From a virus, in IMG/VR virus record IMGVR_UViG_3300020548_000009, positions 1-64,000 of that record: DNA of 64,000 nt. The stretch is one strand, 5' to 3'. Of this stretch, positions 9,126 to 52,604 are shown piece by piece. Positions within the stretch are counted from its first letter, which is position 1, and each line of letters begins with the position of its first letter. Below the pieces are notes generated by a model, which saw only the letters and a program-made list of their open reading frames with translations, made no database searches and was not told the DNA's origin. The translations under genes were made by a program, and so were the position numbers.

Positions 9126-9572
9126 TCAGCCGAAGATTGCTCCTACTGCGTCAGCGAGTGCGCCTTGCGCCTTGCCTTCGTCAATAGTCAGTTCGTCGTT
9201 GCCTGCCATTGAGAGTGCGCTGGCGATAGAACCGTCACGGCTCACCACGACCAGCAACTCCACACGCCGACGCTCAGGGTGCTGAGACGGGGGGGTGTTG
9301 TCACCGTCTGCGACGGGCGAAGCCCAGCCAGCAGTAATAACGCCGTAGTAGTTTGCTGACTTGTCTGGGGTGACATTGTCCAGCAGGTCGTAGACATCTC
9401 CACCACACTGCTCCATGTCCTTTATCCAGATTGGGTGTCCGTCATGGAACGCCACGGGTGCTACCCGAGCCTTTGACGGGGTATTGGTTGGGTTGGTGTT
9501 GAGACAGTCCACGCCGAGCAGTGCGACGATTTCCGCCACGCTCAGGTCTGTCGTATTCGTGAGTGTATTCAT
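9126..9572 (-). CDS. Hypothetical early protein
   Basis: Start MNTL after GGAAAGG. Confidence 0.7.
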   Translation of the reverse strand: MNTLTNTTDLSVAEIVALLGVDCLNTNPTNTPSKARVAPVAFHDGHPIWIKDMEQCGGDVYDLLDNVTPDKSANYYGVITAGWASPVADGDNTPPSQHPERRRVELLVVVSRDGSIASALSMAGNDELTIDEGKAQGALADAVGAIFG

Positions 9573-9666
9573 TGTGTTGCCTTTCCTTGTTTTGTTGTGG
9601 GCGGGATTGCCCACTACTTAGATTGTACCACCGTGTTAGACATTTGTCAACTCGGCCAGCGAGAAT

Positions 9667-9892
9667 CCACTACGAAGCCACCGACAGCAAGCGTCCTTGC
9701 CCATTCCGTTGCGACTCATCGGGTAGCAAGCCCGATTGCCGCCAATAGCAGGGACTAGCAGGGACGGCTACATCGCAGGAGAGGAACTGAGTGTGTGCCG
9801 CGGCACTTCTCTCGTACATCGCTGGTGATACAACGTGTGTCTGGTAATGCTATTCGTATGTTGTCAGTAACTTCGTAGTGGTTTCCCACTAC
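9667..9892 (-). ncRNA. Candidate large structured ncRNA (~225 nt)
   Basis: Own promoter at 9897-9925; the ends pair over ~20 bp (CCACUACGAAGUUACUGACA/UGUCGGUGGCUUCGUAGUGG) with G-U pairs only on the minus strand. Confidence 0.7.
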
Positions 9893-9945
9893 TAATACTG
9901 TATCACATTCTAGTCGCTCTCGCAACCTTATTCTGAATTATTTTT

Positions 9946-10000
9946 GTGGGGTGGTGCCGACTACGACACTCTTACTCGGGTATCATTGCGAACCCCACAC
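9946..10000 (-). ncRNA. Candidate small ncRNA (~55 nt)
   Basis: Promoter TTGGAA-N17-TACAAT at 10005-10033; stems GUGGGG/CCCCAC and AUGAUAC/GUGUCGU; no ORF. Confidence 0.45.
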
Positions 10001-10088
10001 TTAGATTGTACCACATCAGGGGCATGATTCCAACCTTGTGCAAAGATTCTTTTGCTGGTGCCGGGCCCGGCAACAAACTCTGCCCCTG

Positions 10089-10153
10089 CCCCGAAAAAAT
10101 GGTGTTCCTTCATGTTCGGATTTATTCTGTTGTGCTGGCGTTTCCCTTGGGGC
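10089..10153 (+). repeat. Dispersed repeat copy 4
   Basis: AAAAAATGGTGTTCCTTCATGTTCGGATTTATT...GCGTTTCCCTTGGGGC. Confidence 0.9.
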
Positions 10154-10191
10154 CGGGTTCTGCCCCTGCGCGCGCCGGTGCGCTCGCGGCC

Positions 10192-10220
10192 CGAACATCT
10201 GTTCGCCGAACGCGTGTTCG
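10192..10220. promoter_or_regulatory. Two tandem LexA (SOS) boxes CGAAC-N4-GTTCG
   Basis: CGAACatctGTTCG and CGAACgcgtGTTCG; further copies at 1554-1567 and 3896-3909. Confidence 0.7.
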
Positions 10221-10250
10221 GGTGGGGCTTTCGCCCCACCCTTTACGCGG

Positions 10251-11294
10251 TCAGACTCCGAGGAGTTGGAGAACCTTTCGGTCACTCTGCTCGGTCTTGC
10301 CCATGAGCGCGTTCATCATGTTGCGTTCTGCTCGGTTGTCCGAGTTTCCAACGACATGGTGGTTGTAAGTGTTGAACGCTTGAAGAACTCCAAGTGCTGA
10401 ACCCTTCCACGGTGCGACGCGCACATCGTAGTTGTAAAGACTGACAATTTCTTCGCGCTTGTTCTCTGCGCGAGTCACTGCCGCTTTATTCTTATCGTCT
10501 GGCATGAGCGTCGGAATCGGCGCGAGTGCTTCAAGCACTTTCTGCCATTCTGCGTCGCTCACTTTGTGCTCGGACAGTTTCGTAATCTCTGCCATGATGT
10601 TGTCGGTCATCTTGTGAACGATGCCGAGCGCATCACGCGCTGACTGAATCCGCATTGCCGAGTTCTTGCTGTGGCGAGTCTTGAATTGACTCGTGTTCTC
10701 TTTCATCGCCATTGCGTGAGTGTTGTCGCACACTACGAAAGTGGAGACACTCTTGTAGGTGGTTGCCAACATTCCGTTGTGCGATGTCGTGGCGAGCAAG
10801 TGAGGACGGACGCTGAATCCTTCCAACACTTCTACCGACTCTGGCATTTCCAAAGATACGAACGCGACTGCGCCGTTCTTCAAGATGCCTGCCGAGCCAA
10901 AGTTGATGTCATCATCAACGATGTTCGCCAAGTTCTGAACGAGCCATTCTGGATACTGGTGCGAGCAGTAATCTTTGCCGAAGATTTCCATCAGGTCGTT
11001 AGTGTCTGAGCGCAAGATTGCCTGACGCTCTACCTCTACGAACTTGATTGGGTTTCCGTTATCGTCCACGCCTGTGGCATCGTCAAGCGTTGCTGGAACG
11101 CGAACGAACACTGGCGCGCTGACTGCCGACCACGCGAAGAGCCGACGCAAGATGTCATCGGTCGGAATTGCGCCTTCGTAGTGGTTGGGCTCGGTGCCTT
11201 GTAGGTCGGCGCGGTAGTGCCACGCGTTGCCACGCTCGGCGGTGAACCCGACGAGGATGTTGGAGTTGAGCCACTCCATGGTTTCTTTGGACAT
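10251..11294 (-). CDS. DUF932 / phage-plasmid-like protein (TIGR03299-type)
   Basis: AWH motif near the N-terminus, LLATTSHNG, VVCDNT, RHS motifs. Confidence 0.8.
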   Translation of the reverse strand: MSKETMEWLNSNILVGFTAERGNAWHYRADLQGTEPNHYEGAIPTDDILRRLFAWSAVSAPVFVRVPATLDDATGVDDNGNPIKFVEVERQAILRSDTNDLMEIFGKDYCSHQYPEWLVQNLANIVDDDINFGSAGILKNGAVAFVSLEMPESVEVLEGFSVRPHLLATTSHNGMLATTYKSVSTFVVCDNTHAMAMKENTSQFKTRHSKNSAMRIQSARDALGIVHKMTDNIMAEITKLSEHKVSDAEWQKVLEALAPIPTLMPDDKNKAAVTRAENKREEIVSLYNYDVRVAPWKGSALGVLQAFNTYNHHVVGNSDNRAERNMMNALMGKTEQSDRKVLQLLGV

Positions 11295-49910: not shown

Positions 49911-52604
49911 TCAGCCTTCTTCAGGCTCTTTCATGTGCAAATACATGGCGGCGGCGATTGCCAGAACTGTTGATACTCCAGCAATTCTCTGAATAGGCCC
50001 AGACAAAGTTAAATACACAACAAGTGAGCCAGCAATCGTAAAGCCCATGTTGAGCAAGCCGTAGACGAACTTCTTGATAAATGCTTTCCAGTTCATAACC
50101 TTCACCCCATTTACATATCTGTAAATACTTATACTCTTAATCCAATCCAGACCGTCGCCGGCAATTTCGCCAGCAGCCTCAGATTCTTCCTCTTCATTCC
50201 GTCTAGTGGCTGTGTCTTGCTTTGTAGTCGGAGAAGAACCGCTAGGGCCACCGGAACCACCGGAACTTGGCCCGATTGGACCACTGGCGCTCAGCGCGGC
50301 TGCGGATGCCGTGAGCAGGCTTGCGGCAACGACGGTACGACGCTGTCCAACATCGATGGTTTGGCCCAGCATCGTGTAATTATCAAATGCACCCTGGAAT
50401 AGGTCCACAACCTCTTCAAACACCCCTCTAATGGCTTCTGGAGCGCTCTGGACGGCCTCTACGACTGCCTCTGCCTGCTCATCGCTAAGGCTTTCTGCGG
50501 ATACCTGCTCAAAGACCGCCTCTGCTTGGGAGGAATCTATGGACTCAAGTACGGCTGCGCTAGAGGCCAACTCTGCAGCCACCGAGGAATCAACACCAGC
50601 GCTTAAGACCGCCTCAACCACAGCGACAATCTTCTCCTTTTCTTCCTCTGTGAGTTCTTCAACTGGCTTGTCTTCTGAAATTGAGTCAAGAATGGCCCCT
50701 ACGACGGCGACCAATTCCTCTTCGTCAGTGATTGATTCTAGAACTTCCCCAACAGCCTCAATGATTTCTTCCGCCGAAGCATCATCATTAAGAACTGCAT
50801 CTAGTTCCTCAACTATTTCTGTTACAGTTTCATCTTGTGGGGATTCTGATTCTGTTTGGCTTTCTTGGTTTTCTGGTTCTGTCGTCTGTGGCTCTTCTTG
50901 CTGTCCTGCTTCTTCATCAAGTGGAAGAGTTTGCTCCTCATCAGGCTGAGTCTCAATCGGAGTAGTCGTTGCTGTTTCGTCTTCTTCTTGAGGCGGTAAA
51001 GTCGTGGGTGTCGTTACTGAAGGCTCTTCGTCTTCATCGGGAAGAGTCGTATCAGTCTCATCAGGCACAGTCGTTCCAGGCTCGGTCTCTTCTGGCTCAG
51101 GAACAGTGGTTGTCGGGGGAGGCGTTGTCTCCACGGGAGGAACAGTCGTCGTGGTCTGAGGGGCGACATAAACAGTCGTAGTTGTCGTAGTTGTGGTTGT
51201 AGTAGTTGTAGTTGAATTCGGGTCAATAACAGTTGCATCAACAGTTACTTCGGGTCCGTATACACACGGACCTACGCCTTCGCCAGAGAAGCAACTTTGA
51301 TTTCCCGCTTTAATGCCAAAGCGCACAGGTCCAAATCCAGTAGTTACGGGGTTGCTTCCAGAAAACATTCCAGTACTTAGCGAGTAGTTGGTGCCTTGGT
51401 TAGTCCACACACCCCAGCCACCTGACGTTGTTCCGCCAATTTCATCAAGGTCGTAAAAACTAACTGAGTAGCCGTAGACATTTAAGTTGCTTGATGCTGG
51501 AGCATCCCAGTCAAGGTCTATGCTTCCATCTGCGTTTGCTACAGCAGTGAGATTTGTGACTGCGTTGTAATATGGCGCAACCGTCGTTGTTGTAGTCGGC
51601 GGAACAGTAGTAGTTGTGGAAGTAGTCGTAGTTGTAGTCGTTTCAATTGCAGGGGCAGTTTCATTATTTGGCTGCACGCCACCAAATGTTGTGCAATTGC
51701 TTCCATCTGTGGCGCAACGATTTGTTACGCCAGCCGTATCATCAATCATTAACACTGGAGACAATGCGGTGTCGCCAAGGTTGAAAGATGCAAATCCAAG
51801 TTTGTATGTTCCGGTTACGGAAACTTCATAAGTGGAGGTTTGCCAGCCAGTTGAACCGTATGAATTAACCGAGTAGTCGCCAGTTCCTGGATTTGTAAAT
51901 CCCAAAAGTGCATACTGTGCTGTGTAGTTGTTAACTTTTATTACTGGAGTTGACCCAACCGTCACCGGAACAAGGGAAGTTATCGAGCCGTCGTTAAATG
52001 GAACATAGTCAGTACCGACATAGTTCCAGGACATCGTGTATGTAACATCTGCCGTCAACTCGACTTCTTTGGTAATCCAAGCAGCATTGGTTGGATTTGG
52101 GCTTCCGTTGCCGGATGCCTGTGCATCTGCTATCAATTCATTTTGTATTGCTGTTTGCGGTGAGCCGGACAAGCCGAGTGCTGACATTGCGGCCGAAAAG
52201 GTTGCCTCGTTATTCTTTGGCTGCAGTAAAGCAGCGTATGAATTGTTGTTTGGAGAAAATGTCCAACTTCCTGCTGCAACAGCAGGCGCATAATACTTAT
52301 TTGGCTGACCGTTTACCGTTGGACTGCCCATCGCGCCGTGGGGGCCATGCGTAAATGTTCTGGAACCGTTAAAAACAGAAACACCTGTTCCATTTCCGTT
52401 AATGGATGCACCAAGAGTCCCAGTCTGTGAGCCTTTGTCCCACCCAGTTAGGTTGCCAGCCTCAAATCCAGCACCTTGTATCGATTGTGATGGTATTCCA
52501 GTTGAATCTGCTACGGCCGGATACACGCCTATCAGCGCAATAAGAAGGGACACCGGGCCAAGAATGCGGGCAAGTGCTTTTCGGTGGCGGTTCAGCGTAG
52601 ACAT
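49911..52604 (-). CDS. Large secreted/membrane-anchored protein with Fn3-like domain, poly-Thr linkers and acidic stalk
   Basis: Signal peptide (..AVA-D), Thr runs, two C-terminal TM helices. Confidence 0.75.
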   Translation of the reverse strand: MSTLNRHRKALARILGPVSLLIALIGVYPAVADSTGIPSQSIQGAGFEAGNLTGWDKGSQTGTLGASINGNGTGVSVFNGSRTFTHGPHGAMGSPTVNGQPNKYYAPAVAAGSWTFSPNNNSYAALLQPKNNEATFSAAMSALGLSGSPQTAIQNELIADAQASGNGSPNPTNAAWITKEVELTADVTYTMSWNYVGTDYVPFNDGSITSLVPVTVGSTPVIKVNNYTAQYALLGFTNPGTGDYSVNSYGSTGWQTSTYEVSVTGTYKLGFASFNLGDTALSPVLMIDDTAGVTNRCATDGSNCTTFGGVQPNNETAPAIETTTTTTTSTTTTVPPTTTTTVAPYYNAVTNLTAVANADGSIDLDWDAPASSNLNVYGYSVSFYDLDEIGGTTSGGWGVWTNQGTNYSLSTGMFSGSNPVTTGFGPVRFGIKAGNQSCFSGEGVGPCVYGPEVTVDATVIDPNSTTTTTTTTTTTTTVYVAPQTTTTVPPVETTPPPTTTVPEPEETEPGTTVPDETDTTLPDEDEEPSVTTPTTLPPQEEDETATTTPIETQPDEEQTLPLDEEAGQQEEPQTTEPENQESQTESESPQDETVTEIVEELDAVLNDDASAEEIIEAVGEVLESITDEEELVAVVGAILDSISEDKPVEELTEEEKEKIVAVVEAVLSAGVDSSVAAELASSAAVLESIDSSQAEAVFEQVSAESLSDEQAEAVVEAVQSAPEAIRGVFEEVVDLFQGAFDNYTMLGQTIDVGQRRTVVAASLLTASAAALSASGPIGPSSGGSGGPSGSSPTTKQDTATRRNEEEESEAAGEIAGDGLDWIKSISIYRYVNGVKVMNWKAFIKKFVYGLLNMGFTIAGSLVVYLTLSGPIQRIAGVSTVLAIAAAMYLHMKEPEEG

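Follow-up and report, generated by a model that had tools for sequence, protein, structure and literature searches.

A candidate new family of compact structured RNAs closed by a long terminal duplex in uncultured aquatic phages

Introduction

Phage-encoded structured RNAs with a known role are few, and the abundant early RNAs of phages L5 and D29 are unexplained. Y RNAs, 6S RNA and phi29 pRNA bind partner proteins, and the GOLLD and ROOL RNAs are several hundred nucleotides long. 6S RNA is a rod, double-stranded for the most part, whose large central bubble imitates an open promoter; it binds the RNA polymerase holoenzyme and serves as template for product RNAs, while Ms1 binds the polymerase core. 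In actinobacteria, the 6C/B11 sRNA carries two loops with cytosine strings, and these C-rich loops pair with ribosome-binding sites (PMC10470900). The mycobacteriophages L5, D29 and StarStuff, finally, make abundant, stable and toxic early noncoding RNAs (PMC5712189).

Here we describe an RNA locus in a 64-kb window (the whole stretch of DNA analysed, 64,000 nt), which forms the first part of an 84.7-kb IMG/VR virus record. We consider it fairly probable that this locus encodes, as a gene in its own right, a stable and highly structured noncoding RNA of about 235 nt, and that this RNA represents a new family confined to one small clade of uncultured siphoviruses from aquatic habitats, the most likely hosts being actinobacteria. 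The family is new within a known, poorly understood kind, namely stable early phage RNAs, and its nearest precedent in kind is the early RNA of L5, D29 and StarStuff. The likeness lies in an actinobacteriophage setting, a position in the early region, a presumably strong promoter, the lack of a conserved open reading frame (ORF) and apparent accumulation above neighbouring transcripts. The L5 and D29 RNAs, however, comprise several species that arise from ~500 bp at one end of the genome, whereas the RNA described here is a single compact fold with a closing duplex of ~30 bp; a cmsearch run with filters off over L5 positions 50500-52297 reached at best 5.4 bits, i.e. no detectable homology.

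Results

Locus, strand and promoter

Nearly all genes of the window lie on the minus strand, and its first ~20 kb constitute an early-type region with small genes. The RNA locus (Table 1) lies in the 678 bp that separate a DUF932/TIGR03299 gene (11294-10251) from a gene for a 148-aa protein (9572-9126). Among isolated phages, those with the nearest relatives of the DUF932 protein are without exception actinobacteriophages (Rhodococcus, Gordonia, Mycobacterium, Microbacterium and others; ≤45% identity), and a homologue of the 148-aa protein is present in one metagenome-assembled genome (MAG) labelled Pontimonas sp., which together make an actinobacterial host likely, as far as such relationships can tell.

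The first-pass annotation had assigned the RNA to the minus strand on account of G-U pairs in its terminal helix. This assignment is confirmed: three U-G pairs of the helix would turn into A-C mismatches if read on the other strand, and the covariance-model match at 9660-9884 scores 232 bits on the minus strand as opposed to 21 bits on the plus strand. Both RNA ends are predicted, position 9661 being where the extended terminal duplex ends. Folded as a single sequence, the RNA reaches -92 kcal/mol (z = -4.1), a stability matched by none of 200 shuffles.

The RNA is preceded by a promoter of the layout TTGCGA-N17-(TG)A-TACAGT, that is, with a 17-nt spacer and a TG-extended -10 element, and a similar promoter is found upstream of the RNA in 11 of 11 alignable homologues as well as at both clade-E loci. 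It scores only 8/12 against the E. coli consensus and for this reason escaped a generic promoter scan. The RNA had been credited with a strong promoter of its own; the promoter is there in the sequence and is kept in homologues, while its strength is suggested by the A/T-rich upstream tract and by this conservation. The window as a whole contains 32 minus-strand promoters of the same type (TTGCRA-N17-TGA-TACANT), about 30 of them within positions 1-20300. Roughly nine of these 32 early promoters have a short GC-rich hairpin of the GUAGUGGGG...CCCCACUAC type at the start site, which probably serves as a 5′ stabiliser of early mRNAs.

Such a hairpin, GUAGUGG-GAAA-CCACUAC, also occupies the 5′ leader of the RNA. 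It had been noticed before as an alternative to the terminal helix (P1) and read as the sign of a folding switch. The hairpin is present in the sequence, but the switch finds no support: the element occurs in the window clade only (5 of 13 homologues) and is absent from clades B-E, and in the full RNA the complete P1 is favoured over it by ~9.8 kcal/mol, the pair probabilities being near 0 for the hairpin and near 1 for P1. Given the similar hairpins downstream of other early promoters, we regard it as a generic leader feature of the phage, which at most forms transiently during transcription. Its GGGAA segment pairs with the 3′ UUCUC within the extended terminal duplex.

No intrinsic terminator is predicted after P1, nor between the tightly packed early units. 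The promoter upstream of that of the RNA (10033-10005) drives a ~60-nt long-stem hairpin, GUGGGGU...ACCCCAC, without an ORF (window 9935-10033, minus strand); this unit lies directly upstream of the RNA's own promoter, and its transcripts would read into the RNA. On the 3′ side, the P1 3′ strand of clades B-D (GGTTGCTT) at the same time provides the -35 element for the promoter of the following gene, and in clade E the next promoter begins right after the terminal helix (loci considered: L004 5620-5670, L006 5575-5625, L141, L132, L137, L157 and L158).

Table 1. Coordinates of the RNA, its structural elements and adjacent features in the window
Feature	Positions	Strand	Remarks
Upstream promoter	10005-10033	-	read-through would cross the RNA too
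RNA promoter	9897-9947	-	A/T-rich upstream tract ~9947-9927; -35 TTGCGA 9925-9920; -10 TACAGT 9902-9897
RNA, about 232-235 nt	9661-9892	-	predicted purine start 9892-9890; 3′ boundary at or beyond 9661
5′ leader hairpin GUAGUGG-GAAA-CCACUAC	9892-9875	-	contributes its 3′ arm to outer P1
P1, 5′ strand	9862-9887	-	core 9881-9862; extension GGGAA 9887-9883
P2, 5′ strand	9855-9860	-	pairs with 9708-9702; both sides change in 3/6 pairs
P3, 5′ strand AAUAGCA	9848-9854	-	pairs with 9750-9744
GUUGUAUCAC block in nominal hairpin	9820-9835	-	invariant block 9834-9825; stem without covariation
49-codon ORF, judged non-coding	9670-9819	-	ATG at 9819
Pb hairpin	9789-9813	-	6-nt palindromic apex CCGCGG 9803-9798
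C/U-rich strand	9751-9787	-	UUCCUCUCCUGCG 9786-9774 plus UCCCUG repeats
P3, 3′ strand UGCUAUU	9744-9750	-	part of second GUCCCUGCUA unit
Pd two-part hairpin	9711-9742	-	7-nt loop CUUGCUA 9730-9724; 9/11 pairs change on both sides
P2, 3′ strand	9702-9708	-	pairs with 9860-9855
Pe hairpin, between P2 and P1	9687-9700	-	GACG loop 9695-9692; 4/5 pairs change on both sides
P1, 3′ strand	9661-9686	-	core 9686-9667; extension UUCUC 9665-9661
Next promoter TTGACA-N17-TACAAT, for 148-aa gene	9622-9650	-	outside the RNA, abutting it

Homologues and distribution

Thirteen distinct homologous sequences, falling into five clades, were obtained from freshwater, estuarine and marine viral contigs, with one RNA copy per phage in all carriers. 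The 11 alignable homologues are 64-99% identical to each other, while clade E is divergent. Related viral contigs were reached via the DUF932 protein, and the region downstream of its gene was conserved in four of them. A three-block DNA pattern, run against JGI/ENA metagenome contigs, yielded ten true matches, five of which repeated known RNA sequences and five of which were new, along with two chance matches (L134 and L136); in viral contigs, the same pattern retrieved only the four already known and one chance match (L155). A single-block pattern scan of IMG/VR returned at least 119 stretches, almost all of them chance matches. Clade E (L157 and L158) was found by a DUF932 profile search followed by a covariance-model search (66 bits, E ~1e-19).

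Beyond these carriers, the RNA is absent from 18 (3 + 15) whole contigs of distant relatives whose DUF932 gene is ≤57% identical, eight of the 15 being 99-100% complete. The RNA family is thus accessory, and it is narrow. A pattern scan of 185,579 species genomes gave two chance matches and no prophage copy, and a blastn search of 50,697 phage records with the intergenic sequence produced no match among isolated phages. An Infernal search of the whole window against Rfam 15, as proposed at first pass, returned nothing at gathering thresholds, and relaxing the cut-off to E ≤ 10 for positions 9500-10300 gave four chance-level matches only.

Covariation supports a branched fold

The homologues collected allowed the predicted structure to be assessed by covariation. 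In a MAFFT alignment (n = 11), 97.1% of cells are paired across the 47 modelled pairs, 22 of which show double compensatory changes, and the covariation score was reached by none of 500 shuffles. As a control, sliding the partner by 1-3 columns left 29-52% of cells paired (n = 11). Judged by this alignment, the fold is maintained by compensatory changes in relatives. From 5′ to 3′, its elements follow in the order P1, ACAA, P2, P3, a joining strand, the GUUGUAUCAC block, Pb, a ~40-nt C/U-rich strand, P3′, Pd, P2′, Pe and P1′, which creates two three-way junctions (P1/P2/Pe and P2/P3/Pd).

P1 is present in all 13 homologues. The ~20-bp terminal helix described earlier corresponds to its 20-bp core, yet the duplex is actually longer in every clade, extending over 27-33 bp with an energy of -35 to -50 kcal/mol. 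Double compensatory changes affect 6 of the 20 core pairs. The inner half is nearly invariant, including conserved U-G wobbles, and the outer extensions are clade-specific in sequence with their complementarity kept (GGGAA/UUCUC in the window; AUACG/CGUAU, GGAACACAAC/GUUGUGUUCC and others elsewhere).

Within P1, the best-covarying helix is Pd. It contains the hairpin AUCGGG/CCCGAU (9736-9731/9723-9718) that had already been picked out at first pass, and its CUUGCUA loop is invariant in the 11 homologues and different in clade E. The GACG loop of Pe is kept in 13 of 13 homologues; pairing of this loop with a CGUC of the C-rich strand was considered and rejected, being broken in 3 of 11 homologues and showing no covariation. 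A long-range helix, P3, became visible after correction of a one-column register shift between clades (hand-registered alignment), with 89.6% of cells paired versus 13-43% in slid controls and up to four pair types per position. P3 also accounts for the tandem GUCCCUGCUA x2 at 9765-9746 reported at first pass: both units are present in the window, but only the second is conserved in relatives, where it provides a P3 strand, its UGCUA pairing with UAGCA at 9852-9848.

Not all conserved elements behave like helices. The nominal stem around the invariant GUUGUAUCAC block shows no covariation and some non-compensated changes, indicating that the sequence rather than the stem is conserved; clade E keeps the block with a one-base deletion. 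The resemblance of GUUGUAUCAC to a promoter complement (it is the reverse complement of the extended -10 motif GTGATACAAY) was dismissed as coincidental, given that clade E has promoters of the CTGCTATAAT type and retains the RNA block. The palindromic apex of Pb reads CCNNGG in the window and in all 12 relatives (CCGCGG, CCAUGG or CCUAGG), with the central two bases changing together and self-complementarity being kept. By analogy, this hints at an apex that may allow loop-loop self-association, three variants being too few to count as evidence. For the C/U-rich strand, no consistent helix around its motif was found in the homologues, the per-sequence folds disagreeing with each other, and in the eight homologues from outside the window clade that were scored it is predicted to be 58-71% unpaired (C 34-41%, G 16-25%). 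The counterpart of UUCCUCUCCUGCG is UCCCUCCUGCG in L137 and clade E, and the other non-window clades carry one-base variants. Finally, positions 9817-9806 (minus strand) hold a string, GUACGAGAGAAG, which we take to resemble the sarcin-ricin loop of 23S rRNA; it occurs in the window clade only and was discarded as a family feature, as the other clades lack it.

The internal ORF is not conserved

An ORF of 49 codons without a ribosome-binding site had been recorded inside the RNA and is indeed present, with no Shine-Dalgarno sequence before its ATG at 9819. Were the unit to encode a 49-residue peptide, this ATG-started frame (9819-9670) would be the product's template. Conservation of the codon type was, however, not found: L142, the closest relative (92% identical), no longer has the ORF, in L009, L135 and L139 it is frame-shifted after ~16 codons, in clades B-E its ATG is missing, and substitutions are spread evenly over codon positions (e.g., 8/7/7). 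Covariation, in turn, is present at the level of the RNA. With no ribosome-binding site either, we give the peptide reading next to no credence.

Relation to the neighbouring 148-aa gene

In clades A, B (L006) and E the 148-aa gene comes after the RNA, in L137 and L141 its homologue comes before the RNA, and L004 and L005 have the RNA without the gene (within their contig DNA). Because the order varies and the RNA persists where the gene is absent, the RNA is not the leader of one particular gene. Overall, 10 of 13 loci have the 148-aa gene next to the RNA, on one side or the other, and five complete relatives that are without the RNA lack the gene as well. The encoded protein belongs to a family of 28 clusters in 5.8 billion proteins and is acidic (pI 4.4 in the window, 4.2-4.7 overall). 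Pfam, PHROG and NCBIfam contain no match to it. Its confident structural model (pLDDT 89) resembles no known fold, RNA-binding folds included (nothing in Foldseek at E ≤ 0.001; best VIA Z 4.2), and protein-atlas leads were weak (at most 0.89). From gene order and distribution, a physical link between the RNA and this protein is only a lead.

RNA signal in lake and river samples

The whole 1-kb stretch around the locus (9300-10300) is present in 15 lake-water DNA runs, while five RNA runs from three studies contain only a small share of its sampled words. In the four RNA runs (two studies) examined over 9300-10300, this share resolves into one contig each, 157-187 nt long and 100% identical, spanning 9677-9863, 9692-9874, 9688-9852 and 9700-9856 without loose ends, i.e. 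wholly inside the RNA. The same four runs have no contig on 9300-9676 or 9875-10300, so that the flanking genes appear bare, although in such a contig-based comparison uncovered flanks are not proof of absence. DNA carry-over would not single out one segment four times, and we read the pattern as a discrete RNA that accumulates in lake and river communities, above neighbouring transcripts. Metatranscriptome contigs are qualitative, however, and carry no strand, true ends or timing, and the mapping tool grades patterns of this sort as a weak hint. The RNA-seq evidence called for at first pass thus agrees with the covariation, the lack of an Rfam match and the non-conserved ORF, which together uphold the initial proposal of a novel phage noncoding RNA with end-to-end pairing.

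Discussion

How might such an RNA act? We propose that the terminal duplex closes the molecule and would thereby shield both of its ends from exonucleases. Going by its length, the duplex would also be long enough for cleavage by host RNase III, which, given that no intrinsic terminator follows, could cut the RNA out of read-through transcripts. It would then act in trans through its invariant single-stranded elements, with the invariant loops and the C/U-rich strand as candidate working surfaces. As a mode of action we tentatively favour, by analogy, pairing of the C/U-rich strand with purine-rich ribosome-binding sites and repression of their translation. The C/U-rich core resembles the anti-Shine-Dalgarno tail of 16S rRNA, and, as with 6C/B11, the setting is actinobacterial and there is C-rich sequence, left unpaired, for which purine-rich ribosome-binding sites would be possible partners. 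Here, however, that sequence forms a ~40-nt joining region in a 235-nt scaffold and there is no Rfam 6C match; membership in 6C/B11 hence fails on architecture and on Rfam, while a similar mode of action is possible. Against anti-Shine-Dalgarno pairing speaks the incomplete conservation of the CCUCC core, the window clade having CCUCUCCU and clade B CCCUUCU. Moreover, the phage genes themselves carry strong purine-rich ribosome-binding sites, so that an RNA of this kind would not obviously spare them. As for more specific antisense pairing, other transcripts of the window offer no complementary stretch of ≥13 nt, and matches of 11-12 nt occur at chance level. It is unlikely that the RNA is a scaffolded mimic of the 16S rRNA 3′ tail, in which the C/U-rich strand, mounted on a nuclease-resistant frame, would blanket purine-rich ribosome-binding sites and so reprogramme translation early in infection, or serve as a decoy for a host endoribonuclease that attacks pyrimidine motifs. 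If the endoribonuclease option were true, the RNA would be an RNA-only counter-defence.

The inner half of P1 and three loops are invariant in sequence, which fits contact sites for a protein no less than sites of RNA pairing. It is possible, if doubtful, and nearly as likely as the pairing mode favoured above, that the RNA is a decoy or scaffold for a host or phage protein bound via the invariant loops and the inner P1, whose U-G wobbles are fixed. Such a role would fit the contrast between elements of fixed sequence (inner P1, the GACG and CUUGCUA loops, GUUGUAUCAC) and the stems beside them, which covary freely. In a variant of this reading the partner would be the 148-aa protein, whose gene adjoins the RNA at most loci in either order, is missing from the five complete RNA-less relatives and belongs to a family as narrow as that of the RNA. 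Yet this protein is acidic, has no match in Pfam, PHROG or NCBIfam and is modelled with no known RNA-binding fold; L004 and L005 keep the RNA without the gene, and adjacency could equally reflect synteny among close relatives. In outline, the RNA is like YrlA Y RNAs and phi29 pRNA in having a long terminal stem formed from both ends, one half of it conserved in sequence, and a structured head. A Ro60/TROVE gene (PF05731) is absent from the phage records G000, G001 and G002 (64-79% complete; controls were detected), ARAGORN finds no tRNA in the window that would point to a tRNA-like module, and the reverse transcriptase of a retron (PF00078) is absent from G000-G002. Unlike phi29, the phage encodes a tape-measure-type minor tail protein and so is not a phi29-like podovirus, and there is no Rfam pRNA match.

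A role in cis appears improbable. The duplex, as an RNase III site or protective structure, would here separate read-through transcripts and stabilise neighbouring mRNAs, with the accumulating RNA as a by-product. A duplex of 27-33 bp, the lack of terminators between tightly packed early units and the overlap or abutment of the P1 3′ strand with the next gene's promoter in clades B-E are all in keeping with a processing or insulator module. By contrast, a conserved promoter of its own with an A/T-rich upstream tract, and a conserved, covarying core of ~180 nt with invariant loops, go far beyond what a cleavage site needs; the position of the RNA relative to genes varies, and the RNA samples show the RNA only and no flanking mRNA. 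More improbable still is an RNA polymerase-binding regulator of the 6S/Ms1 type that redirects host transcription, a kinship the first-pass annotation had raised from size and closed-stem layout. The RNA does appear abundant, stable and closed by its ends, and strong expression of the L5 and D29 early RNAs is toxic to the host (PMC5712189). The anatomical resemblance nevertheless finds no support: where 6S is a rod, this RNA has at least five helices inside P1, two three-way junctions and several hairpins, a multi-branched core with no promoter-like central bubble. No 6S model of Rfam matches at gathering score in the window, and neither 6S nor Ms1 models match at E ≤ 10 in 9500-10300. What remains of the likeness is an apparently stable and abundant RNA with paired 5′ and 3′ ends.

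With GOLLD, ROOL and other RNA-only assemblies (PMC12286853; bioRxiv 10.64898/2026.07.01.735769), the RNA shares being phage-borne and elaborately folded and coming from lake metagenomes, and its self-complementary loop apex might mediate self-association. At about 235 nt it is much smaller than GOLLD and ROOL, and it matches no Rfam model.

The family thus combines a compact fold, on which covariation places good constraints, with clearly recognisable invariant elements and with direct signs of accumulation in natural lake and river communities. It is a tractable candidate for solving the structure, for pulling down partners and for testing whether phages use RNA to take over actinobacterial hosts or to counter their defences, and covariance model R2 could be used to annotate freshwater viral metagenomes.

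Apart from the RNA, the window contains nine co-oriented elements of 60-100 nt, one at 10078-10160 and the others starting at 1586, 5247, 7617, 11539, 13513, 17986, 20430 and 21351. They share conserved blocks such as ATGGTGTTCC and GGATTTATT (plus strand), and the copies examined closely (7604-, 10078- and 11526-) lie just downstream of minus-strand genes.
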